Source: Hymenobacter sublimis (GTDB lineage Bacteria > Bacteroidota > Bacteroidia > Cytophagales > Hymenobacteraceae). Taken from it: a stretch of 64,000 bases of DNA. Both the position numbers and the translations under genes were made by a program. Below the pieces are notes generated by a model. The model was not told the DNA's origin. It did not search any database and worked only from the letters and a program-made list of their open reading frames with translations. The stretch is taken from contig NZ_CP095848.1 in assembly GCF_023101345.1 (NCBI RefSeq), positions 2,485,297 through 2,549,296 of the forward strand, read 5' to 3'. This document shows, piece after piece, positions 7,351 to 63,667 of this stretch. Each line of letters starts with the position of its first letter. The first letter of the stretch is position 1.

Positions 7351-7433
7351 TGCGCGCGGGGAGATTCGAACTCCCACACCCGAAGGCACCACCCCCTCAA
7401 GATGGCGTGTCTACCAGTTTCACCACGTGCGCA
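7351..7433 (-). tRNA. tRNA-Leu (anticodon GAG), class II with long variable arm; no encoded CCA
   Basis: The reverse complement reads GCGCACG-TG-GTGAAACTGGTAGAC...CTTGAGG (anticodon loop with GAG)...GGGAGTTCGAATCTCCC-CGCGCGC-A. Canonical D-arm and T-arm are present. Confidence 0.75.
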
Positions 7434-11340: not shown

Positions 11341-12744
11341 CTACACCCCGCCTTCCATGCGCACGATGCGCGGGCTAAAGGAGCCCAGCACATCCACCAG
11401 CTCAGTCTGGCTTTGCATCACGGCGTGAATGTCTTTGTAGGCCTGGGGCGCCTCATCGACGCCCCCGCCCAGCAGCTCAATACCGTGCTGTTGGAGGTAG
11501 CGGCGCACTTCGGCCTCGCCCAGCTCCTGCTTGGCCCGGGTGCGCGACATTTGCCGACCCGCGCCGTGGGAAGCCGACGACAAGGACGCCGCCTCGCCCC
11601 GCCCCCGCACGATAAAGCCGGGGGCCGTCATGGAGCCCGGAATGATGCCGAGCACCCCTTTGCCGGCCGGCGTGGCTCCTTTGCGGTGGACCACTACCTC
11701 CCGGCCGTCCATCAGGCGCTCTTTCCAGGCGAAGTTGTGGTGGTTTTCCACTTTGGCCAGGGGCCGCTCGCCGAGGGCTTTGGCCAGGCGCTGGTGAATC
11801 TGGTGGTGACAGGCCGAGGCGTAGTCGCCGGCTAAGTTCATGGCCGCCCAATACTCCTGTCCGGCTTCCGTGTCGAGGCCGAGCCAGGCGAGGTGGCGGG
11901 CTTCGGCGGGTAGCTGGCAGGTATCCTGGGCCAGTTTGGTGTAGTGGTTGGCGATGCTGGCCCCTAGCCCCCGGGAGCCGGAGTGCGAAAGCAACCCCAG
12001 GTACTGACCTACCGGCACGCCCAGCTCATTGGCGGGGTCGGTGATGTCGACCACGCCCCACTCCACGAAGTGGTTGCCGCCCCCGGAGGAGCCGATTTGC
12101 GCGGCGGCCGTGTCGAGCTTGTTGCGCAGAAAGGGAATTTCCTGGAACTCCGGGCGGTCGAGGACGGCGTGCCCCAGCTTCTGGCCGTGGCGGAATACGT
12201 CGCGGTTGCCGAATTTGGTGTGGTCCAGCAGCAGCTTACGCAGCTCCTGTACCCGTTGCTCCAGAAACTTAGGCGGCAAGGCAAACACCGACAGGGCCAT
12301 CCGGCAGCCAATGTCCACACCCACGGCGTAGGGAATTACGGCGTTATCCGTAGCCAGCACCCCGCCAATGGGCAGACCGTAGCCGTGGTGAGCGTCGGGC
12401 ATGAGGGCCCCAGCCACGGTTACGGGCAGCTTCATGGCCGTTTCCATCTGATGGATGGCACCCTGCTCAATGTACTCGGCGCCAAATACAGCGTATTCCT
12501 TGCGCTCCGTAAGGGCAATGTGCCGGCTGGGCGGGGGTAGCAAAGCGGCGGCCGTGTGGCTCCAGTCGAGGTGGGTGAGGTAGGTAGAAGGGTCAGCCAG
12601 CAGGCTTTTGAGCAGGGTTAGCTGGTCGGTTTGGGAAAGTTTTTTGAGGTGCTTGCGCTGCAGTTGAGCCAGCGCGAGTCCAATGGCCCGACCTTCCGGG
12701 AAGCCAAGCTGCCGAAGGTCGTTGCCGCGTAGTTGTGAGGCCAT
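11341..12744 (-). CDS. rtcB: RtcB family RNA 3'-phosphate/5'-OH ligase
   Basis: Hallmarks 'MPDAHHGYGLPIGGV', 'GSRGLG', 'HNFAWKE' and 'SHGAGR'; 467 aa. Confidence 0.9.
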   Translation of the reverse strand: MASQLRGNDLRQLGFPEGRAIGLALAQLQRKHLKKLSQTDQLTLLKSLLADPSTYLTHLDWSHTAAALLPPPSRHIALTERKEYAVFGAEYIEQGAIHQMETAMKLPVTVAGALMPDAHHGYGLPIGGVLATDNAVIPYAVGVDIGCRMALSVFALPPKFLEQRVQELRKLLLDHTKFGNRDVFRHGQKLGHAVLDRPEFQEIPFLRNKLDTAAAQIGSSGGGNHFVEWGVVDITDPANELGVPVGQYLGLLSHSGSRGLGASIANHYTKLAQDTCQLPAEARHLAWLGLDTEAGQEYWAAMNLAGDYASACHHQIHQRLAKALGERPLAKVENHHNFAWKERLMDGREVVVHRKGATPAGKGVLGIIPGSMTAPGFIVRGRGEAASLSSASHGAGRQMSRTRAKQELGEAEVRRYLQQHGIELLGGGVDEAPQAYKDIHAVMQSQTELVDVLGSFSPRIVRMEGGV

Positions 12745-12778
12745 GCGAATAAGAATGTACTAGAAGAAATTTTCGGCT

Positions 12779-12869
12779 GCGGAGCAACGGGCGAGTCGCG
12801 TATCCTGAGGGGTGGGTGTGCACCCGCAGTCAGGCCGAAGTAACGCGACCCTACGGCATCCGAAAGCCA
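12779..12869 (-). ncRNA. Short Y-RNA-like unit (YrlB-like: closing stem only, no tRNA-like module), 35 bp upstream of rtcB
   Basis: The minus strand has the 5' box GGATGCCGTAGGGTCGCG-TTACTTCG and the 3' side CGCGACTC...GTTGCTCC, which pairs with the 5' box. It shares the boxes of the longer units. Confidence 0.4.
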
Positions 12870-12979
12870 GAGAAAAAGAGCGGTTAGAAGGGTAATAAGG
12901 CGGACAGGCCCTTAGGTTTTCAGACGAAGTATGCCTGCTCCACGACACCTTCCGGCCGCTCAAGAGTATTCAAAAAAAT

Positions 12980-13127
12980 CTGTTCGGGGCAACAGGTGGG
13001 CGGCCCCTATATCCTGCTCTACCTTCTGAGCTACAGCCACCACCCAAGGGTAGCAACTGGTGGGACTCGAACCCACGACCCGGGCAACCACAGTGCGAAG
13101 TATGGTCGCCCTACGGCACCCGAACAG
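12980..13127 (-). ncRNA. Y-RNA-like (YrlA-like) unit 1 with tRNA-like module
   Basis: The minus strand reads, in order: 5' box GGGTGCCGTAGGGCGACCATACTTCG; T-arm GTGGG-TTCGAGT-CCCAC; acceptor-like 3' strand; linker; 5' strand with D-arm GCTC-AGAAGGTA-GAGC; hairpin GGGGC...GCCCC; 3' box CTGTTGCCCC. Confidence 0.5.
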
Positions 13128-13149
13128 ATAGTACCAGCGGTGAGGTAAT

Positions 13150-13275
13150 CAGCGAAAAGCGTTCTGTAAACTGGGTGCTTTTGACCACTCAGCCACTTGC
13201 CCGCAGTCGGACAAGACGGGATTCGAACCCGCGGGCTACAGAAGGCCAACCAACGAAGTAGCGCTTTCTTCCGAC
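13150..13275 (-). ncRNA. Y-RNA-like unit 2 (variant closing stem GAAAGCGC/GCGCTTTTC) with tRNA-like module
   Basis: T-arm GCGGG-TTCGAAT-CCCGT; a 7-bp acceptor-like hairpin CTTGTCC-G-ACTGC-GGGCAAG; a class-II-type D-arm GCT-GAGTGGTCAAA-AGC. Confidence 0.45.
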
Positions 13276-13299
13276 ACTCACCTTTTTATTTTCCGTGGG

Positions 13300-13441
13300 G
13301 GTGGGGCTAACAAGCACCAGGCCTTTTATCCTGCTCTACCTGACTGAGCTACAGCGGCCACCGAAGCAGCCACCAGCGGGATTCGAACCCGCGACCTGGG
13401 CGTTAAGAGCGCGAAGTATGGCCTGGCTACGGCACCCACTC
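13300..13441 (-). ncRNA. Y-RNA-like unit 3 with tRNA-like module
   Basis: 5' box GGGTGCCGTAGCCAGGCCATACTTCG; T-arm GCGGG-TTCGAAT-CCCGC; D-arm GCTC-AGTCAGGTA-GAGC; 3' box GCTTGTTAGCCCC. Confidence 0.5.
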
Positions 13442-13462
13442 CCGCGGAAAAAACAAAACCTA

Positions 13463-13610
13463 CCGGGGCAACAAACGAGCAGCGAAATGACCGGCCCGAA
13501 GGCCGTTCTGCTCTACCTAGCTGAGCTACAGTCCAAGAGAAACAACCTGATTGGACTGGCCCGAATCGAACGGGCGACCCGAAGTAACGCTGCCCTACGA
13601 CACCCGGCAG
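13463..13610 (-). ncRNA. Y-RNA-like unit 4 with tRNA-like module
   Basis: 5' box GGGTGTCGTAGGGCAGCGTTACTTCG; T-arm GCCCG-TTCGATT-CGGGC; perfect 7-bp acceptor-like stem CAGTCCA/TGGACTG closed by a 15-nt loop; D-arm GCTC-AGCTAGGTA-GAGC; UUCG-capped hairpin CGGCC-TTCG-GGCCG; 3' box TTTGTTGCCCC. Confidence 0.5.
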
Positions 13611-13636
13611 GGTGATAATGCGGCTGACCCTCTGCG

Positions 13637-13762
13637 TTGGGGCAACAAGCGGCTGGCGAGTACCCCGCAGCCGGAACTGCGGGATGGGAATCGAACCCTA
13701 CACCGGGGATGCCGGTGTATTCAACCAAGACGAAGTAACGCCTGCCTACGGCACCCAAACGG
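13637..13762 (-). ncRNA. Y-RNA-like unit 5 (degenerate tRNA-like module)
   Basis: 5' box GGGTGCCGTAGGCAGGCGTTACTTCG; a T-loop-like GGGTTCGATTCCC with a weak stem; a 7-bp hairpin CCCGCAG-TTCCGG-CTGCGGG; 3' box GCTTGTTGCCCC; no D-arm. Confidence 0.4.
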
Positions 13763-14375
13763 GCGGAAGTCAGCCGGTTTGGAGCGGGCCGCCGAAGCAC
13801 AGCGCTTCGGCGGTAAGCCGCCCCGGCCGGCGGCAGCCATCAGGTGGTCAGCCGCCGTCCCAAGCAGTAGAAGCCATAGCTTCTGGGAGTACTTATGTTA
13901 CCATACGAGGAGTTTGGTAAGAGAACTTCATGGCTATGAACGTTACAAAAGATGATTATGATATACTGAAAAACGTAAAAAACTACGCTCCAGCTATATT
14001 TTAGCCATTTTACGGGGTAACGGCGTTTCGAACTTCTGGCACGGTTCTGTTTGGACTTCTACCAGTTTGCCGTTTTTCAGCGGGCCACCGGGTTTTCGTA
14101 GTTGCCTCGTGCCAGGGCGTCGAGGGTGCTATGGGCTATTTATTGTTGTAGTTCTCGGTTCATTAGAGTAGGTATTGTCGGGCCGTAACCCGGGAGTGGC
14201 ACCGCTTTTCGGGTTGCCGCAAGCCACTCCCGGGGCCGCGTGGTTTAGGTAGAAATAATGGGATAGGAATGCTGGAGAACTATGCAACACGGAGGATAAT
14301 TAGTTGACAGACATGTTTCTATGATGCCTGATTACTTGATCTGATGTCAGTACTACCGCAGCATCTGGCGCTTCT

Positions 14376-14490
14376 TTGCCCGGCTGTAGAGACGCGACAC
14401 TTCGCGTCTTGTCATTGCTGACGTTATTTAGACTGCGCGGTTCCTGGTCGTTCTGACGCCGAGACGCGAAGTGTCACGTCTCTACAGCTG
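14376..14490. repeat. Pair of inverted hairpin repeats (GAGACGCGA-AGTGT-CGCGTCTC family) between the Y-RNA array and the rsr stop
   Basis: GTAGAGACGCGACACTTCGCGTCT at ~14385 and AGACGCGAAGTGTCACGTCTCTAC at ~14465, in opposite orientation. Related copies lie at 16951-16982 and 17028-17050. Confidence 0.55.
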
Positions 14491-14562
14491 TTCTATTGTT
14501 AGCCGGGCGAGATGCTTCGCAGGGCGCCGTGTGACAGTTAAATGGGATATTCTAGTTGCCCA

Positions 14563-16134
14563 TTACAACACTATCTGTTCGATTTCGGTAAGAGCGAATC
14601 CGCCATTGTCGAGGGCGGCCAGCACGTCGAAAATCTTATCCGACCAGCCGGCAATCAGGGCTGCACCTTGTTCGGGGTGTACTTGCAGGGGCGCGGTGCC
14701 ATGACCGGCTAGGTCGAAGAGGTATAGCTGGGCCTGTGGAGCAACGGTGCGCCGGTACTCCGCCCATTCTTTGGCCATGTTGGTGCCGTTGAAGTGAGAG
14801 TTCCAGAGCTGGCAGTCGGTGAAGAGCATTACCTTATCTACTACCTCCCGGCGGCGGCGCAAGTCCTCGATAACCAGGTAGCCGTTAGTGCTGTAGCCTA
14901 CCTCGCCTTCGCGGCGGTAAAACTCCTGCACGTTGCGCAAAATGGGGCCACGGGGCAGCGTCAGCCGCTTCCAGGTGTCGCCGAACATGCCGGTTACCAC
15001 GTTCTGGCAGCGGCTCTGCAGGAGCATGCCCAGCACCAGGCCCACGTCGTAGTACAGCACTTTGCTGCGCTGAGAAATAGGCTGTTGCATGGAGCCCGAC
15101 ACGTCACAAGCTACCACTACCCGAGTTTCCGAGCCGAAGCCGCGCAGGTTGGCGGCGCTGTGGCCGATGGCCGCTTCCAGGGCTTCCAGCACCTGCGGCA
15201 CCGGGCTCTGGCGCAACCCCACTGCCATCAGCACCGACTGCAGCGTGCCTGCTTCCAAAGCCTTTACCTCACGGTAAGCGGCCAGAAAGCGGAAGGGCAG
15301 CTGCTTGCTGCGGGCTACGGCCCGCGCATCGGCGAGGGTGGCACACACTTGCGCTACTGCCTCGGCTGGTACACCAGCCTGCAGGATGTTGCGCAGGTTG
15401 CGTAGCAGGGCCATGTAGCCCAACTTGCCGCTACCAATTAGCTCCGTCCACTTCTGGCGGAAAGCGGCCGCCCGCTCTGCCTCCGACGTAAATCCTACCT
15501 GTCCCAGAGCCGACAATTCAGTCTCCCAGGTGTAGGGCGTAGGGAGGGTGCCGGCCACCAGCTGGTTAAATAAGGCTTGCTGGCCTTCGTCGGCGGGGCG
15601 CGGGTGCACCAGGAACAGGGCGTCGCGGAGGCGCACGGTGCCGGCCCGGTCGTACTTGGCCAGTTGGTAGCCGTCGAAGCGGTTGAAGGCTTGGGCCAAC
15701 CCTTTCTGCACCTGCTTGGAGAGACGGTTGAGGGTTTTGAGGCCGGTGCGGCCGTTGGCTTGGGCGTAATAGGCCAGCAGCTCCGTGATTTCGTCGGGGC
15801 GCTGTACCACACGAGCTACCAGGCGGCTGACCAGGTTGGTACCCTGGTGCAAGCGGGCCAGCTCTACGGCCAATACCAGCGGCACGGAGCGCAAATACAG
15901 CCTTTCGCGGGCATACACAGCTAGGCGGGCCACGAACTCCGCATCGTTGCGAGCCACTAATTCGCGCAGACGCACTAAGCGGGTATCGGCGGTTTCGTAG
16001 AACTGGTCGCTGAGGGCGGCAGTAGCCACGGCGGCGTACAGCTCCAGCGCGGGAGTGAGCATAGTAGCCGGTGCACCCTCGTGGTTGAGCACCGGAGCCG
16101 GAGTAGGCGGGCGGAAGGGGAAGTTGAAACGCAT
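14563..16134 (-). CDS. rsr: Ro60-related protein Rsr (TROVE domain + C-terminal vWA domain)
   Basis: N-terminal TROVE-like region 'YARERLYLRSVPLVLAVELAR'; C-terminal vWA with MIDAS 'VVVACDVSGSM'; ~523 aa; sits next to rtcB with structured ncRNA units between them. Confidence 0.75.
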   Translation of the reverse strand: MRFNFPFRPPTPAPVLNHEGAPATMLTPALELYAAVATAALSDQFYETADTRLVRLRELVARNDAEFVARLAVYARERLYLRSVPLVLAVELARLHQGTNLVSRLVARVVQRPDEITELLAYYAQANGRTGLKTLNRLSKQVQKGLAQAFNRFDGYQLAKYDRAGTVRLRDALFLVHPRPADEGQQALFNQLVAGTLPTPYTWETELSALGQVGFTSEAERAAAFRQKWTELIGSGKLGYMALLRNLRNILQAGVPAEAVAQVCATLADARAVARSKQLPFRFLAAYREVKALEAGTLQSVLMAVGLRQSPVPQVLEALEAAIGHSAANLRGFGSETRVVVACDVSGSMQQPISQRSKVLYYDVGLVLGMLLQSRCQNVVTGMFGDTWKRLTLPRGPILRNVQEFYRREGEVGYSTNGYLVIEDLRRRREVVDKVMLFTDCQLWNSHFNGTNMAKEWAEYRRTVAPQAQLYLFDLAGHGTAPLQVHPEQGAALIAGWSDKIFDVLAALDNGGFALTEIEQIVL

Positions 16135-16949
16135 CGGATAGAAAAATCAGGCAGTGAGTACTAATGAATGACGGCTATAACCAGAATAAATAACTCGTAC
16201 TTTTTACCTAGGAAAGCACACACTTTTTCCAGCATAATTCACGCACGAATTATTAAATAAAACTTTAGAAAATCAAAGACAATACTTTCCCTTTACACCC
16301 CAAAAATAGGATGATCTTATTTTAAATAACCAGATAAATTAATTTGACTAAGCCAAGTTTACACCGTGTTTGCTTACGCAGAGGTGCTAGCCTTTAGCCA
16401 TTGCTGCTACTCCGGTTTACTACCGTTTTGCCAAGTCGCAACGACTGATAGTCGCGGGCAATTGAGGGTAATACGGATGGAGTGCGAGGGGTAAAGAGAA
16501 TAACATCATGGGAAGTAGGATAGATAGAAGATGAAAACAAAAACGCCCGAATCTGATATGATTCGGGCGTTTGCGGAGGATGGTTCTAGAGTAGAAACCT
16601 TACCTGTCTGCTGGCGCGCCGAACCCCGGCTGAATCTCCCGATCCAGCTTGCTGAGTGATGGCATATCTTGATTAAAGTGGCGGCACATGACAGGAAAGG
16701 TGTAAAAGTCGTTAGCGTTTGGGCTGTTGAACGCGACAAAGGTAGAAAAGTTATTTTCTTACCAACAAGTTTGGTTCATAAATTTTTAAAATATTTTTCA
16801 CACATAAATTAAATGCCCTTTCAAAGGTTTATTTCAAGGTTTTTATTAATTATTTAGAAAGAATAAAACTAAATTTTTACCCTTTTGCTTTACCAGACAA
16901 ACGATATTTCATTCTGATTAAGGAGTTTTTGCATAGTGTGTAACGGTGT

Positions 16950-17060
16950 AGCAGCAGACGCGCATTTCGCGTCTGCTACCAGAACAACCTGCTTAGCGCC
17001 ACATGCGGTACAGACCGTTCAACGAAGAGACGCGAAGTGTCGCGTCTCTGCATATCAGTC
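16950..17060. repeat. Two hairpin repeats of the GACGCG...CGCGTC family, located past the 5' end of rsr
   Basis: GTAGCAGCAGACGCGCATTTCGCGTCTGCTAC and GAGACGCGAAGTGTCGCGTCTCT. Confidence 0.5.
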
Positions 17061-20068: not shown

Positions 20069-20971
20069 ATGCCCTGCCTTGCAACCTCCGACCGTTACAG
20101 CATTCAACTGCCCGCCGGCCACCGCTTCCCTATTGCCAAATATGCCCTGATTCGGGAGCAGTTGCTGTGGCAGGGCATTGCCCCACCGGAAGATTTCTAC
20201 GACCCGGGGTTGTGCGCCGAGGAGGATATTTTGCGGGTACATTCCATGGAGTACTGGCAGCGCGTGCGGGACTTGCAGCTCTCGGCGGCGGAGGTGCGGC
20301 GGCTGGGGTTGCCCCAGAGTCCGGAGCTGGTGCGCCGCTCCCTGAGCAGCTCGGCCGGCACGGTGCAGTCGGCGCGCAAGGCCCTGGAGCACGGCATTGG
20401 CCTGAGTCTGGCCGGGGGCACCCACCACGCGTTCCGCGACCGGGGCGAGGGGTTTTGCGTGCTCAACGACATAGCCATTGCCGCCGCCCACCTGCTCCAC
20501 CACGGCTTGGTGCGCCAAGTGCTGGTAGTGGACCTAGATGTGCACCAGGGCGACGGCACGGCCAGCATTTTCCGGGAGGAGCCGCGCGTATTTACCTTTT
20601 CCATGCACGCCGGCGCCAATTACCCCCTGCGCAAGGAGCAGTCGGACCTGGACGTGGCCCTGGACCTGGGCACCGACGACGAAACTTACCTCCGCATGCT
20701 GCACGACACCCTACCTCGCCTACTCGCCCAAGTTCAGCCCGATTTCATCTTCTTTCAAGCCGGCGTTGATGTGCTGGCTACCGACAAGCTCGGCAAGCTG
20801 GCCCTAACCCAAGCCGGTTGCCGCCGCCGCGACGAATACGTTTTGCGCCTCTGCCAGCAGCACCAGCTGCCCGTAGCCGTGAGCATGGGCGGCGGCTACT
20901 CTGAGCAGCTCCGCGACATTGTGGATGCCCACTGTACCACCTTCCGGGTGGCCTACGAAGTGTTTGGGTAG
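20069..20971 (+). CDS. Histone deacetylase-family amidohydrolase (AcuC/HDAC-like)
   Basis: 'GGTHHAFRDRGEGFCVLNDIAIAA' and 'VVDLDVHQGDGT' active-site motifs. Confidence 0.8.
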   Translation: MPCLATSDRYSIQLPAGHRFPIAKYALIREQLLWQGIAPPEDFYDPGLCAEEDILRVHSMEYWQRVRDLQLSAAEVRRLGLPQSPELVRRSLSSSAGTVQSARKALEHGIGLSLAGGTHHAFRDRGEGFCVLNDIAIAAAHLLHHGLVRQVLVVDLDVHQGDGTASIFREEPRVFTFSMHAGANYPLRKEQSDLDVALDLGTDDETYLRMLHDTLPRLLAQVQPDFIFFQAGVDVLATDKLGKLALTQAGCRRRDEYVLRLCQQHQLPVAVSMGGGYSEQLRDIVDAHCTTFRVAYEVFG

Positions 20972-26762: not shown

Positions 26763-27545
26763 CTAGCCTAGCCGGGCCAGCAGCTCCTCCACTTGCCGCT
26801 CCAGGCGCGTTACCCGCTCCTCTACCAAGGCCGGTGGGCGCAAGTAGGTACTGAACACACCTTGCACTTCCCATACTTCCAGGGCATCTGTAAAAGGCAC
26901 GTCCTGCACCGGATAGTCGGGGTTATCGGCCCGCAGGCGTAGCACGTTGTCGGAACGGTGCTCCAGCAGCCGGCGCACCAACAGTTGATTTTGCAGCACG
27001 AAGGCGTACAGGCGGCCCGCCCGCAGGCGCAGCGTGGCCTTGTCTACCCGGCAGGTTAGCAGCACATCCTGGTGCCGAACGGTGGGCTGCATATCCGCGC
27101 CCTGCATCTCAAAGGCCCGGGTGGCGCCCCCTAGCTCGGGCGGAAACGTTAGGGTAGCCAGGCCCTGCACAAAAGCGGCGTCGTGGTGCCGCACAATGTA
27201 CTCCATGAGCCGGGCCGTGGGCACGTAGGGAGTAGCTCCCGAAGTTCCCTCCGAAGCGGCGTCGGCCGCTGGGGTATCTGGTTGCTGGTACCGCTCAAAA
27301 CCATAGAGGTCGTTTACGGTCAGTTCTTTCGTTAGTAGCAGGTCAACGGAAAGGCCAAAATGATGAGCAATCTGAATTAGCGTCTCCATTTTGGGCTCCG
27401 AGCGGCCCTCTTCGTAAGCCCCTACGCTGGGACGGGCCAGCCCGAATAATTCGGCAAAAGCCGCCTGACTCAGCTTTTTAACCGTTCTTATCTTGCGGAT
27501 GTTCTTTCCGACGTGTGACATCGTAGCAAAAATATTTTCGCTCAA
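26763..27545 (-). CDS. XRE-family HTH transcriptional regulator with C-terminal sensor/peptidase-like domain; the true start may be the internal ATG at 27521
   Basis: HTH 'IRKIRTVKKLSQAAFAELFGLARPSVGAYEEGRSEP'. A perfect palindrome GCTCAAACTTTGAGC lies just upstream. Confidence 0.65.
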   Translation of the reverse strand: MSENIFATMSHVGKNIRKIRTVKKLSQAAFAELFGLARPSVGAYEEGRSEPKMETLIQIAHHFGLSVDLLLTKELTVNDLYGFERYQQPDTPAADAASEGTSGATPYVPTARLMEYIVRHHDAAFVQGLATLTFPPELGGATRAFEMQGADMQPTVRHQDVLLTCRVDKATLRLRAGRLYAFVLQNQLLVRRLLEHRSDNVLRLRADNPDYPVQDVPFTDALEVWEVQGVFSTYLRPPALVEERVTRLERQVEELLARLG

Positions 27546-29544: not shown

Positions 29545-30198
29545 ATGACTGACCTGTTTCACGCGGCGCTTTTGCCAGCCAATCTGCTGCCCACGGCCCT
29601 ACTGGTATTTGTGCTGCTCTACTGGCTGACCGTAATTACCGGCCTGCTCGATTTCAAGTCCCTGGATTTGGACGTGCATCATCACCCGGAGCTGCACCAC
29701 ACCCACTTTCACGCCCCTGAGGGCATGGGCGTAAGTTGGTTAAATCACGCTTTGGCTTTTTTCAACCTGGGTCGGGTGCCGCTGATGGTGTTTGTGGCTT
29801 TTGTGGCCCTACCGCTGTGGGTAGGCAGCATTCTGCTTAACTATTACCTGGGTAACAGCTCTTGGCAGCTGGGGTTGCTGCTACTGCTGCCGTTGCTGCT
29901 GGTGGCGCTGCTGGTTGCCAAGGTCCTGACCACGCCGTTCGTGCATGTGTTTGCCGCCTTCGAGAAAGACCACCACGATGGTACCCGGCCCCTGGGCAAG
30001 GTTTGCACCATTCTGCTACCCGCCAGCCAGCAGCACCTGGGCCAGGCCAGCGTGGCAGTGCCCAACGGCGCCCCCCTGATGCTCAACGTGCGAGCCGCCG
30101 ACGCCACCACGGAGCTGCGCAAGGGCGACTCGGCCCTGGTGATTGATTATGATGAGCAGCGCCGCTGCTACGTAATTGAACCCTACGAGGTGTCCTGA
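29545..30198 (+). CDS. YqiJ/NfeD-like membrane protein (OB-fold C-terminal domain); probable flotillin partner
   Basis: Multi-pass hydrophobic N-terminus and a C-terminal beta-rich 'ASVAVPNGAPLMLNVRAADATTELRKGDSALVIDYDEQRRCYVIEP' resembling NfeD OB-folds. A flotillin gene lies downstream. Confidence 0.5.
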   Translation: MTDLFHAALLPANLLPTALLVFVLLYWLTVITGLLDFKSLDLDVHHHPELHHTHFHAPEGMGVSWLNHALAFFNLGRVPLMVFVAFVALPLWVGSILLNYYLGNSSWQLGLLLLLPLLLVALLVAKVLTTPFVHVFAAFEKDHHDGTRPLGKVCTILLPASQQHLGQASVAVPNGAPLMLNVRAADATTELRKGDSALVIDYDEQRRCYVIEPYEVS

Positions 30199-62659: not shown

Positions 62660-63667
62660 ATGAGGAAGACATACTATCTGTTCAATCCTGGCCGGTTGAG
62701 CCGGAAGGACAATACTTTACAATACACCGCTTACGATGAGCAAGGCTTACCCGGACAAGTGAAGTATTTGCCCATAATGGATGTGGCAGATCTCTACGTG
62801 TTCGGTTCACTCGATGCTAACTCCAGCCTCTACAACTTCCTAGGTAAGAACGGCGTCTCAGTGCACTTTTTCGACTACTACGAGCACTATACCGGTTCGT
62901 TCATGGCCAAGGAGTACCTGCTGGCAGGCAAGCTTCAGGTGCAGCAAACTCAACATTACACGTCTAAAACCAAGCGCATTGCTCTCGCCCGCAAGTTTGT
63001 GGAGGGTTCCGCGTTCAATCTACTCAAGAACCTACGTTATTACCAGAGCCGCGGCCGGGACGTAGCCGCTCACATCGATCAGATAGAGGGCTACGTGGCT
63101 GCCCTACCGTTCGCCAATGCCGTACCTGAGCTCATGGGGCTGGAAGGCAACATTCGTCAGACCTACTACAGCGGCTTCGACCGGCTGGTACCTACCGATT
63201 ACGCTTTCGGCACGCGTACCACTCAACCGCCTCAAAACGAACTTAACGCACTTATGTCGTTTGGCAACATGCTCTGCTACTCGGCCTGTCTTTCGCAGAT
63301 CTATCATACGCAGCTCAACCCTACCATTAGCTTTTTGCACGAGCCTGGTACTCGCCGGTTCTCGCTGGCCTTAGATCTTGCTGAGATTTTCAAGCCCCTG
63401 CTAGTAGATCGTCTGATTTTCCGGGTACTCAACAAGCGAGAAATTCGCCCCAATGATTTTGTGCAGGACCTAGGCCGCTGCGTACTGAAAGAACCCGCGA
63501 AGAAAACTGTGGTACGCGTTTTTGAAGAGCGCCTGAAGGAAACAATTCAACACCGTAGCCTCAAGCGTAGCGTCAGTTACCAGCACTTAATCAAGCTTGA
63601 GTGCTACAAGCTCACTAAGCACTTAATGCAGATGGAAGAATACAAACCCTTTAAAGCGTGGTGGTAA
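62660..63667 (+). CDS. cas1: Cas1 integrase
   Basis: 'YYLFNPGRLSRKDNTLQY' N-terminus; 'SFGNMLCYSACLSQIY' and 'HEPGTRRFSLALDLAEIFKP' core; 335 aa. Confidence 0.9.
   Translation: MRKTYYLFNPGRLSRKDNTLQYTAYDEQGLPGQVKYLPIMDVADLYVFGSLDANSSLYNFLGKNGVSVHFFDYYEHYTGSFMAKEYLLAGKLQVQQTQHYTSKTKRIALARKFVEGSAFNLLKNLRYYQSRGRDVAAHIDQIEGYVAALPFANAVPELMGLEGNIRQTYYSGFDRLVPTDYAFGTRTTQPPQNELNALMSFGNMLCYSACLSQIYHTQLNPTISFLHEPGTRRFSLALDLAEIFKPLLVDRLIFRVLNKREIRPNDFVQDLGRCVLKEPAKKTVVRVFEERLKETIQHRSLKRSVSYQHLIKLECYKLTKHLMQMEEYKPFKAWW

Follow-up and report, generated by a model that had tools for sequence, protein, structure and literature searches.

The described systems closest to the present locus are those of the bacterial Y RNAs. 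YrlA RNAs (Rfam RF02553; Chen et al. 2014, PMC4201824; structure in Wang et al. 2018, 10.1101/312249) are built from T, AS and D arms and carry GNCGAA and YUAY motifs (PMC4201824), with class-II-like variable arms also occurring among them (bioRxiv 10.1101/312249). Each species has at least two Y RNAs; those of the radiation-resistant bacterium Deinococcus radiodurans are polycistronic, and orthologs of the short YrlB were found in Salmonella enterica only (PMC4201824). A Y RNA has been proposed to act as an RtcB cofactor or as a nuclease decoy (10.1101/312249, PMC7790460). Here, we describe an rsr–Y-RNA array–rtcB locus from Hymenobacter sublimis, found in a window of 64 kb (the whole stretch of DNA analyzed). 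We put at roughly 85% the probability that it constitutes an RNA quality-control and repair operon, with expression, processing and Rsr binding predicted from its sequence.

On the minus strand, rsr is followed by seven tandem units (12774-13763) and then by rtcB. The non-coding gap between the two genes measures 1.8 kb, as against the ~1.1 kb given in the preliminary description; the 800 nt nearest rsr contain what is left of a PARG gene, along with a palindromic repeat and a conserved leader element, and all seven units share the strand of rsr and are no more than 1.8 kb away from it. The units were scored with R1, a covariance model built in this analysis with U3 and U5 among its seed sequences, so that the high R1 scores of these two are circular. 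In the order of transcription, the features are:

16301-16308, minus strand: TATTTTTG, candidate Bacteroidetes-type -7 promoter box, ~170 nt upstream of rsr (regex scan)
14563-16134, minus strand: rsr, Ro60 ortholog, 523 aa, with TROVE ring and vWA domain with a MIDAS motif
14374-14512, no strand assigned: palindromic repeat element just downstream of rsr (fold -70.7 kcal/mol, z -8.2)
14080-14238, minus strand: remnant of a microbial-type PARG gene, first ~54 codons (tblastn with the PARG of related locus L001, 74% identity, E 1e-20)
13764-13867, minus strand: conserved two-hairpin leader element (consensus fold, compensatory changes in hairpin 2)
13633-13763, minus strand: U1, Y-RNA-like (R1 40.9 bits, E 6e-10; MFE fold)
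13458-13612, minus strand: U2, YrlA-like (R1 89.7 bits; Rfam YrlA 38.3 bits over 13506-13583)
13296-13444, minus strand: U3, YrlA-like (R1 134.2 bits, as a seed sequence; Rfam YrlA 35.0 bits)
13135-13286, minus strand: U4, YrlA-like (R1 48.4 bits, E 4e-12; fold)
12979-13128, minus strand: U5, YrlA-like (R1 142.8 bits, as a seed sequence; Rfam YrlA 38.7 bits, full-length model)
12883-12957, minus strand: U6, short Y-RNA-like hairpin, 75 nt (R1 29.1 bits, E 5.5e-8, with filters off only)
12774-12868, minus strand: U7, short Y-RNA-like, 95 nt, GGAUGCCGUAG ... GUUGCUCC (R1 34.6 bits, E 4e-8)
11341-12744, minus strand: rtcB, 3'-phosphate/5'-OH RNA ligase, 467 aa (Pfam RtcB, E 3e-83)

The flanking genes proved to be what they had been taken for from the letters alone, namely a TROVE+vWA Ro60 ortholog and an RtcB RNA ligase. 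The rsr product matches Pfam TROVE (E 3e-29) and, just below the 27.7-bit cut-off, vWA_Ro60 (24.9 bits, E 2e-5); it displays the MIDAS motif DVSGS, is 92-94% identical to Hymenobacter TROVE proteins, and aligns over residues 17-511 to the Thermus phage Ro60 structures 9L5Y/9KOP (E 3e-23). Comparison of the ligase with Pyrococcus horikoshii RtcB (1UC2) shows that the motifs DIxC, GNHF, HSGSRGLG, HHN and SHGAGR are kept and that the metal-binding and guanylylation motifs are intact. In 65 of 80 related loci, rtcB is found downstream of rsr and in the same orientation.

With filters on and off, R1 yields seven units in the window, one more than the approximately six first counted, at 29-143 bits against 12 bits for the best non-unit match in the 64 kb. 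The earlier-noted 5' and 3' boxes are confirmed: of nine TACTTCG occurrences in the window, seven fall at 12836-13737 on the minus strand, inside the array. Common to all units is a module comprising a 5'/3' closing stem, in which the box G(C/U)CGUAG faces UUGUU(G/A)CC, a covarying second stem, and a conserved internal loop, (U/A)UACUUCG. In the Ro-box helix, changes at the N of GNCG are matched by changes at the R of the 3' box (C-G 265, U-A 54, U-G 39, C-A 4). Sequence and comparison show seven tandem genes for predicted structured RNAs, which combine one Ro60-binding-type module with differing apical modules: four circularly permuted tRNA-like domains, one tRNA-like domain lacking the D arm, and two short hairpins.

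The succession of T arm, closed acceptor-like hairpin and D arm reported earlier is likewise a real, covarying structure. It was ascribed to five long units but is complete in only four, U2-U5; U1 combines the closing stem with a long variable-arm-like hairpin, a weak T arm (GGG/CCC) and a 7-bp closed acceptor-like hairpin, and has no D arm. In U2, the UACUUCG box leads at once into the T arm, followed by the acceptor-like hairpin, a class-I D arm and an extra hairpin. U3 and U5 bear a 3-bp/7-nt anticodon-like mini hairpin (GCG-CUCUUAA-CGC and GCA-N7-UGC, respectively), contrary to the claim that no anticodon arm exists, ahead of a T arm, acceptor-like hairpin and class-I D arm; in U5, a run of seven T follows, and its sequence has every tRNA tertiary-contact base (U8, A14, G18G19, C48, U54U55C56). 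U4 has a degenerate 5' box (GUCGGAAG), a T arm, an 8-bp acceptor-like hairpin and a class-II D arm, GUGGCUGAGUGGUCAAAAGCAC, which we take to resemble those of tRNA-Ser. Two units, and not only the one nearest rtcB, lack the tRNA-like module: U6, with closing stem, stem 2, UACUUCG and a conserved GUCUGAAAA loop, and U7, with an internal hairpin, whose class is usually the final unit ahead of rtcB. These unit classes have positional orthologs across species: U1 has reciprocal-best orthologs in 29 loci, U2 orthologs in 11, U3 in 53, and U4 in the three closest genomes only.

In a consensus structure from 26 sequences, 24 of 33 pairs show compensatory changes, and 92.4% of cells are paired, against 40-49% after sliding the partners; none of 500 shuffles reached the observed covariation value, though kinship among the sequences inflates shuffle statistics. 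The closing stem, T arm, acceptor-like stem and D arm all covary, U1, U6 and U7 being without some of these parts. The two short classes show compensatory changes in 12 of 17 (U6, alignment A3) and 9 of 20 pairs (U7, alignment A4). For U5, U2 and U3, the best-matching Rfam family is YrlA, but at 35-39 bits (E 2e-6 to 2e-5) all fall below the 69-bit gathering score; the array is missed by the public RNA-family model at its curated cut-off.

Across the 80 related loci, R1 finds 453 matches, every one on the same strand as rsr and almost all of them 0-4.1 kb downstream of it, with a median of 6 and a maximum of 10 units per locus. The 2014 survey recorded only 355 YrlAs in 276 genomes (PMC4201824). 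Six copies had seemed more than expected; within this lineage 6-8 are the rule, and seven are typical of Hymenobacter and other Bacteroidota.

The leader element adjoins U1 and scores 67.7 bits with its own model, R2. R2 finds a single copy per locus in 47 Hymenobacter loci, in all cases immediately 5' of a U1-type unit, with none elsewhere in 1.33 Mb and no match to the element in Rfam. The PARG gene is intact in 24 of the 80 loci, between rsr and the array, and Pfam PARG_cat_microb matches the ORFs of loci L001 and L008. The palindromic repeat recurs at unrelated positions in both orientations in other Hymenobacter loci, often inside arrays, and one of its arms is found again at 17028-17051 of the window. 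With its dispersed copies in both orientations and only 12.4 bits with R1, it was rejected as a Y-RNA unit.

As the preliminary description had stated, no RtcR-like activator or rtcA is adjacent: there is no GAFTGA motif anywhere in the 64 kb, and no RtcA among the RtcA-sized ORFs scanned with Pfam. No sigma-54 promoter was found near the locus, the sole sigma-54-like match in the window lying far away at 29603. This absence of RtcR has a precedent in M. smegmatis, where YrlA is outside RtcR control (PMC4201824). We infer that expression is independent of the enterobacterial RtcR/sigma-54 circuit. A terminator-like hairpin lies at 16541-16572, and TATTTTTG, downstream of it, is a candidate rsr promoter. 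The spacers of 6-21 nt between units, together with the rtcB ATG 30 nt past U7, imply one polycistronic transcript; no terminator-like site between U7 and rtcB was found in the window.

This continuity could also mean that the array chiefly serves as a cis-acting structured leader for rtcB and not as a source of stable trans-acting Y RNAs, with the modules controlling transcription read-through, mRNA stability or translation, for instance via tRNA-interacting proteins or damaged-RNA signals. We regard this as improbable. The short, terminator-free junction with rtcB would suit it, as would the leader element ahead of the array, the attenuator-like CCGGUUUUU in which the last unit of many relatives ends, and the absence of RtcR, which calls for other control. 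However, like architecture gives discrete Rsr-bound RNAs in Salmonella, M. smegmatis and D. radiodurans (PMC4201824), each unit carries a separate Ro-box closing stem where a leader would not require seven, and about 10 related loci have other genes between the array and rtcB.

Far less probable still is that the units represent tRNA genes that have decayed or been split, either a degenerate tandem tRNA array or halves with partners in a neighboring unit or elsewhere. ARAGORN reports a tRNA-Lys(ctt) within U3 (13366-13437) and similar tRNAs within the arrays of many loci; the U3 call is false, being due to the anticodon-like mini hairpin, and has 21.7 bits with the tRNA model. All tRNA-model scores remain under the 29-bit cut-off, whereas the genuine tRNA-Leu of the window attains 43.7. 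A dimeric-tRNA origin has been proposed for YrlA (10.1101/312249), and Rfam tRNA gives weak matches (25.1 bits for 13052-13200) in which the D half of one unit is combined with the T half of its neighbor. Yet the acceptor-like strands pair and covary within a unit, in T-to-D order, the called 'anticodons' differ freely among orthologs, and across Bacteroidota the closing stems and boxes are maintained beside rsr only. A non-functional or mobile repeat family (REP/MITE-like), placed between rsr and rtcB by chance, is scarcely credible, for although a real dispersed palindromic repeat occupies the same spacer and often enters the arrays of other species, the units are not near-identical copies, occur on a single strand and at a single locus in each genome segment searched, and have their structure preserved by compensatory changes.

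The reading as a Y-RNA array, in contrast, is supported by the Rfam YrlA best matches of three units, the YrlA architecture and motifs, the proximity to rsr on its strand, and the stem covariation; the original view of an Rsr/tRNA-mimic array/RtcB locus without RtcR stands, with its anatomy and count amended. We propose a single precursor, transcribed together with rsr, from a spacer promoter or by both routes, that spans the units and runs into rtcB, since no gap is big enough for separate promoters. The precursor would be cut into RNAs of 75-155 nt, stabilized by Rsr on the closing stem. On the model of D. radiodurans and Salmonella, the Y RNAs may each gate the Rsr ring and tether it via their apical module to a partner, candidates being PNPase or other exonucleases, RtcB and tRNA-binding enzymes. 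The differing heads could thereby confer several specificities on Rsr in stress-induced RNA damage.

Judged by its sequence, the locus represents the known Rsr/Y-RNA/RtcB system in a variant specific to its lineage, with predicted expression and Rsr binding. Like YrlA, the units are rsr-adjacent on the same strand, with a Ro-box in the 5'/3' closing stem, a YUAY motif (here UUAC/AUAC/CUAC within UACUUCG), the T arm, closed acceptor-like stem, D arm order with tRNA tertiary-contact bases, and variable-arm-like hairpins in some heads. They differ in their sub-threshold scores with the YrlA model, in having G(C/U)CGUAG in place of GNCGAA(N)G and a longer invariant UACUUCG loop, and in forming seven paralogs, whose heads include a Ser-like class-II D arm, a form without D arm and the mini anticodon-like hairpin, U1, U6 and U7 being without parts of the YrlA head. 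U6 and U7 parallel the short YrlB/Yrn2 RNAs of Salmonella, M. smegmatis and D. radiodurans (PMC4201824) as Ro-binding stems without a tRNA-like domain whose genes adjoin those of tRNA-like Y RNAs. However, they lack sequence similarity to YrlB, their apical loops are not small and pyrimidine-rich, and they form two distinct conserved classes, the U7 type usually beside rtcB. The D. radiodurans rsr locus (Yrn1, Yrn2, RNAs a, b and d; PMC4201824) likewise has several rsr-adjacent small RNAs, made from a polycistronic precursor such as we propose here, but these are upstream of rsr, not linked to rtcB, and of a different Y-RNA lineage with the order of T and D reversed, only two being accepted Y RNAs. 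In contrast to Salmonella rsr-yrlBA-rtcBA (RtcR/sigma-54; PMC7790460), which has two Y RNAs to the seven here, the Hymenobacter locus has no adjacent rtcA, RtcR-type motif (in 64 kb) or nearby sigma-54 promoter, and in its relatives the operon includes a PARG gene and is preceded by a PcfJ-like gene. Nevertheless, both place rsr, Y RNAs and rtcB in this order on one strand, and a response to RNA/tRNA damage is their likely common role.

The genes bracketing the array encode, as the preliminary description had proposed, a Ro60-like protein and an RNA ligase. The rsr product (14563-16134, minus strand) is 92-94% identical to the TROVE-domain proteins of Hymenobacter sp. DG01, HSC-4F20, H. latericoloratus and H. 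sediminis, and the profile search suggested for it recovers TROVE (Pfam E 3e-29, 102.9 bits) along with a vWA_Ro60 match of 24.9 bits, slightly below the 27.7-bit cut-off. The MIDAS motif DVSGS is present, and residues 17-511 align end to end with the structures 9L5Y/9KOP of a Thermus phage Ro60 solved together with its Y RNA. The protein thus has the TROVE HEAT-repeat ring followed by the MIDAS-bearing vWA domain that define Ro60/Rsr. On the other side, the ORF at 11341-12744 (minus strand) is a full-length RtcB (Pfam E 3e-83, 280.7 bits, profile positions 1-423 of 426), whose DIGC, GNHF, HSGSRGLG, HHN and SHGAGR align with the P. horikoshii RtcB motifs that we take to hold the metals (Cys/His) and the guanylylated His; the RtcB fold and both sets of residues are in place. 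Neighbouring genes include Dps/ferritin, MOSC and OsmC (Pfam), which are compatible with a stress context and prove nothing. A histone-deacetylase-family gene (20069-20971, plus strand) also neighbours rsr in L008, one of the related loci described below. Farther off, the window holds a LexA-like repressor (HTH_3 and peptidase S24; 26763-27545, minus strand) and, near its end, a Cas1 gene (62660-63667, plus strand), from which a CRISPR-Cas locus is probably situated there.

Between rsr and rtcB lie seven tandem units (U1-U7; 12774-13763, minus strand), one more than the approximately six reported earlier, as counted with R1, a covariance model for the units made in this analysis. The heptamer TACTTCG occurs nine times in the window, and seven of these copies fall within the array, on one strand. 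A second model made here, R2, describes the leader element that precedes U1.

Features of the rsr-rtcB region, in transcriptional order (window positions)
16301-16308, minus strand: Bacteroidetes-type -7 box TATTTTTG upstream of rsr, past a terminator-like hairpin; candidate promoter
14374-14512: palindrome; fold -70.7 kcal/mol, z -8.2
14080-14238, minus strand: PARG remnant, first ~54 residues of a microbial-type PARG (PF10021); 74% identity, E 1e-20
13764-13867, minus strand: leader, a GC-rich two-hairpin element; R2 67.7 bits
13633-13763, minus strand: unit U1; R1 40.9 bits
13458-13612, minus strand: unit U2; R1 89.7 bits
13296-13444, minus strand: unit U3; R1 134.2 bits, a circular score because U3 is a seed sequence
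13135-13286, minus strand: unit U4; R1 48.4 bits
12979-13128, minus strand: unit U5; R1 142.8 bits, circular for the same reason (seed sequence)
12883-12957, minus strand: unit U6; R1 29.1 bits, detected only with filters off
12774-12868, minus strand: unit U7; R1 34.6 bits

Minimum-free-energy folding of each unit bears out the predicted closing stem and gives all seven a common framework: an outer stem formed by the 5' and 3' ends, a box region lying opposite (C/U)UUGUU(G/A)CC, a second helix that differs in sequence from unit to unit while keeping its complementarity, and UACUUCG in an internal loop. Six of the seven start with G(C/U)CG(U/G)(A/G)G, followed after 8 nt by (U/A)UACUUCG, the 5' box of U4 being degenerate (GUCGGAAG). 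Upon this framework U2, U3 and U5 carry a T arm (e.g., GUGGG-UUCGAGU-CCCAC), a loop-closed acceptor-like stem of 7-8 bp with its 3' strand placed first, and then U8-A9 and a D arm, GCUC-A..GG.A-GAGC; the bases of the tRNA tertiary contacts can be read directly from their sequences. U4 has the same order of arms, its D arm (GUGGCUGAGUGGUCAAAAGCAC) resembling what we take to be the class-II D arm of bacterial tRNA-Ser. In U1 a long hairpin occupies the variable-arm position; there are also a weak T arm and an acceptor-like hairpin, and the D arm is missing. The short U6 (75 nt) and U7 (95 nt) add only a loop or small hairpin to the framework. The tRNA-like module of YrlA, the tRNA-mimicking bacterial Y RNA (T arm, closed acceptor-like stem, D arm and contact bases), is accordingly found in U2, U3, U4 and U5, and not in U1, which has no D arm, nor in U6 and U7, which have no module. 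The permuted order attributed to five long units therefore stands for U2-U5 and fails for U1, and the units without a tRNA-like part number two instead of one. The stated absence of an anticodon arm fails in U3 and U5, which fold a 3-bp/7-nt mini hairpin at the position expected for that arm.

The spacers between units are only 6-21 nt long and the rtcB ATG lies 30 nt past U7, distances at which separate promoters are implausible and from which we infer that the transcript of rtcB includes at least the array's last part. Such a polycistronic layout would fit the Y RNAs of D. radiodurans, which are polycistronic, and the Salmonella operon, which is likewise so (PMC4201824, PMC7790460). An Rsr-protein scan of one genome per species gave 80 related rsr loci, of which about 64 belong to Hymenobacter and the remainder to other Bacteroidota; in 65 of the 80, rtcB lies downstream of rsr on the same strand. 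It is possible that the array acts in part as a cis-acting leader of rtcB.

As a Y-RNA operon, the locus is without the divergent RtcR, sigma-54 promoter and rtcA of the RtcR-regulated rtcBA arrangement, and the absence of RtcR and RtcA noted earlier for its immediate surroundings holds within the 64-kb window. No reading frame of the window encodes either sigma-54 activator signature, GAFTGA or ESELFGH; the one sigma-54-like promoter match there, at 29603, is far from the locus; and no RtcA was found among the neighbouring or RtcA-sized ORFs of the window scanned with Pfam. The YrlA of M. smegmatis is likewise not under RtcR control (PMC4201824). As sigma-70-type promoter scans are ill-suited to Bacteroidota, the -7 box match alone is given, as a candidate. 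An inverted repeat of the type AATAATTCG-N-CGTGAATTATG (16233-16254, minus strand), some 100 nt ahead of the rsr start, is kept in the three closest genomes (L001-L003) and may act as an operator; the arms in relatives are 8 bp long (ATAATTCA/TGAATTAT).

That the units are structured RNAs is argued by covariation. A seed alignment, from which R1 was built, joins the window U3 and U5 with single units of 24 loci, 26 long units in all. Its consensus fold comprises five helices, namely the outer stem, stem 2, the T arm, the acceptor-like hairpin and the D arm, with compensatory changes in 24 of the 33 consensus pairs. Standard pairs fill 92.4% of cells, against 40-49% with the 3' partners slid by 1-3 columns, and the covariation score is 0.53, against 0.07-0.20 for slid partners; none of 500 shuffles reached the observed values. 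The D stem is invariant, and hence uninformative on covariation either way. Both short classes are also conserved and structured, compensatory changes occurring in 12 of 17 pairs of the U6-type and 9 of 20 pairs of the U7-type alignment. Beyond the seven units, the next-best R1 score in the 64 kb is at most 12.4 bits. Pairing of the 5' module with its 3' partner by ungapped matching or RNAduplex was too noisy (shuffled -25 versus -27 kcal/mol), and the covariance model was used instead; similarly, MAFFT of U2-U5 alone misaligned the U4 D arm, and the 26-sequence seed took its place.

The 5' box, of the form G(C/U)CGUAG, reads GCCGUA in 245 and GUCGUA in 70 of 374 units; regular-expression counts of the box are a first look only, which miss UCCUUCG and UACUCCG variants and catch a site inside rtcB. 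The N of its GNCG and the purine in the 3' box covary (C-G 265, U-A 54, U-G 39, C-A 4), in support of a helix through the box region. Ro60 binds a bulged helix in animal Y RNAs, and the pattern supports the view that the box helix of the units may be its counterpart. The box is one base off the published YrlA 5' motif GNCGAAN0-1G, a putative Rsr contact in RNAs encoded within 4 kb of a Ro60 ortholog on the same strand (PMC4201824).

In a sensitive Rfam scan of 12500-14700 (2.2 kb), YrlA (RF02553) is the best family for three units at E values of 2e-6 to 2e-5: U5 scores 38.7 bits over the full-length model, U2 38.3 bits and U3 35.0 bits. U4 scores 16.6 bits against it, and U1, U6 and U7 have no YrlA match. 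The proposed check against the Rfam YrlA model thus succeeds as to family for three units and fails as to the 69-bit gathering threshold, which no unit reaches. A whole-window scan at gathering thresholds returned no match, a filter effect only, given that the fast filters also lost the genuine tRNA-Leu(gag) at 7351-7432 (minus strand), which scores 43.7 bits in a small scan (cut-off 29).

A reading of the units as decayed or split tRNA genes is contradicted by sub-threshold tRNA scores, by the pairing within units and by the strict linkage to rsr. As anticipated, the array contains no canonical cloverleaf above the 29-bit Rfam tRNA threshold (25.1, 21.7 and 17.3 bits). The tRNA-Lys(ctt) called by ARAGORN at 13366-13437 (minus strand), inside U3, scores 21.7 bits with the Rfam tRNA model; the mini hairpin of U3, standing in place of an anticodon arm, accounts for this false call. 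Similar false tRNAs (Lys, Pro, His, Arg, Gly, Gln) appear inside U3/U5-type units in the arrays of many relatives (L001, L007, L008, L010, L012, L019, L028, L030, L032, L037 and others); as the anticodon-like loop varies freely between orthologs, spurious tRNAs may stand in genome annotations.

Across the 80 loci R1 yields 453 matches at E <= 1e-3, all on the rsr strand and all but one downstream of rsr, within 4.1 kb. The window units likewise share the minus strand with rsr and lie 0.8-1.8 kb past its stop, inside the 4-kb same-strand limit used for YrlA. The one match that is not downstream of rsr is weak (24 bits) and falls inside a tRNA array upstream of rsr in L070, a Ferruginibacter MAG, where L070:1845-3427 is a tight array of 16 tRNA genes of atypical sequence, 6.7 kb upstream of rsr. 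This single-locus, single-strand distribution, together with the covariation, contradicts a mobile repeat.

The Y-RNA arrays hold a median of six units per locus, mostly 6-8 and at most 10. Beyond Hymenobacter, the number is 4-5 in Ferruginibacter, 4 in Rufibacter, 5 in Chryseolinea, 6 in Mucilaginibacter and 5 in Chitinophaga. All of these counts are lower bounds because default filters lose short units. Six copies, which had seemed unexpectedly many, are hence the norm for the lineage. Reciprocal-best orthologs occupy the same array position for U1 in 29 loci, U2 in 11, U3 in 53, U4 in 3, U5 in 10, U6 in 8 and U7 in 2, which makes the array a collection of old, distinct paralog classes with some turnover, and not the product of recent amplification. 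Among 459 units, 133 have class-I, 17 Leu-like and 13 Ser-like D arms; in about 200 a T arm is present and the simple patterns used recognise no D arm, and 77 are without any tRNA-like part. When D arms were typed against real tRNAs, the 16 L070 tRNAs were atypical and uninformative, and the only clear match was that of the Leu-like arm to the D arm of the window tRNA-Leu (22-nt global alignment, score 16 out of 22). The final, U7-type unit before rtcB ends in many species in CCGG and four or five U (e.g., L024:10534-10622, L038:10544-10632), resembling an intrinsic terminator or attenuator; the window U7 has no such end. The seven T that follow the window U5 are not kept by the orthologs of that unit.

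Three elements make up the 800 nt that separate U1 from rsr: the palindrome, the PARG remnant and the two-hairpin leader. The palindrome, considered as an eighth, inverted unit, scores only 12.4 bits with R1; one of its arms recurs at 17028-17051, and copies in other Hymenobacter loci lie at unrelated positions and in both orientations, which marks it as a dispersed repeat. This REP/MITE-like element, with arms GTAGAGACGYGACACTTCGCGTCT, lies within Y-RNA array spacers in several species (copies at L032:10366-10464, L037:11753-11776, L038:10800-10823, L045:11453-11476 and L009:7168-7191). In 24 of the 80 loci (e.g., L001:9659-10591, L008:9546-10490) an intact PARG gene separates rsr from the array, so the window has lost it; a hairpin at 14187-14236, considered as a structured RNA, was rejected because it falls within the coding remnant. 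A PcfJ-like gene (PF14284), absent from the window, is present in 37 loci, directly upstream of rsr in most of them. R2 finds one copy of the leader in the window and in each of 47 Hymenobacter loci, on the rsr strand, and no further match in the 1.33 Mb searched. Where present, it always abuts the 5' end of a U1-type unit (e.g., L037:10942-11029, L016:9648-9735). It has no Rfam match; hairpin 2 shows compensatory changes, and an outer helix around both hairpins was inconsistent column by column when the alignment was inspected by eye. The leader is possibly a processing signal, attenuator or sensor.

The units carry a 5' motif resembling the GNCGAA of YrlA and share with YrlA a YUAY before the variable region (UUAC/AUAC/CUAC inside UACUUCG), T, AS (acceptor-like) and D stem-loops in permuted order and optional variable-arm hairpins, and the locus, like those of YrlA, has a second, short Y-RNA type; the shared features are published ones of YrlA (PMC4201824; 10.1101/312249). 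Because of this match in anatomy, the established Y-RNA mechanism is the most likely one. By analogy, Rsr would bind the closing stem and stabilise the units, TruB/DusA would modify them, and the apical module would tether Rsr to partners such as PNPase or gate access to them. The RtcB link suggests an involvement with damaged tRNA or rRNA, as cofactor or decoy, roles that are so far only proposals (10.1101/312249, PMC7790460). We think it improbable, with perhaps one chance in seven, that the array is a repertoire of Rsr adaptors and not a set of redundant copies and that, separately, the leader at 13764-13867 is an RtcR-independent control or processing device. The adaptor heads, one per paralog class, may be the class-I, the Ser-like and Leu-like class-II D arms, the D-arm-less and the short forms. 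If so, Rsr, with RtcB or exonucleases, would be directed to, or protected from, differing tRNA-interacting partners or tRNA-targeting nucleases, and the leader could be a sensor, an attenuator or a self-cleaving RNA with products that RtcB could rejoin.

Work on bacterial Y RNAs has covered three species, with two to five such RNAs each. The operons of this lineage, with 6-10 diversified Y RNAs in conserved classes, offer a natural experiment, in which the partners of each class could reveal the targets of the heads. In Bacteroidota genomes these RNAs are absent from annotation or mis-annotated because they fall below the Rfam cut-off and some are mis-called as tRNAs by ARAGORN, a gap that R1 would close; the PARG link in relatives and the new leader motif are leads on RNA repair and RtcR-independent control. 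A 2014 survey listed 355 YrlAs in 276 genomes (PMC4201824), and no report of Y-RNA arrays in Hymenobacter or Bacteroidota was found among the papers searched. The Y-RNA/Rsr/RtcB association is of a kind already known, and the window array is a differing version of it. In contrast to YrlA, its units form a divergent subfamily out of reach of the curated Rfam model, with a variant Ro-box, an extended invariant loop and heads that bear class-II-type D arms or lack a D arm. In contrast to RtcR-regulated systems, no RtcR or RtcA was found in its 64-kb window. It further differs from known Y-RNA loci and operons by a new leader motif, by the PARG and PcfJ-like partners present in relatives, and by a large set of diversified paralogs in each operon, seven here and up to ten in others, which is normal across a phylum-level lineage.
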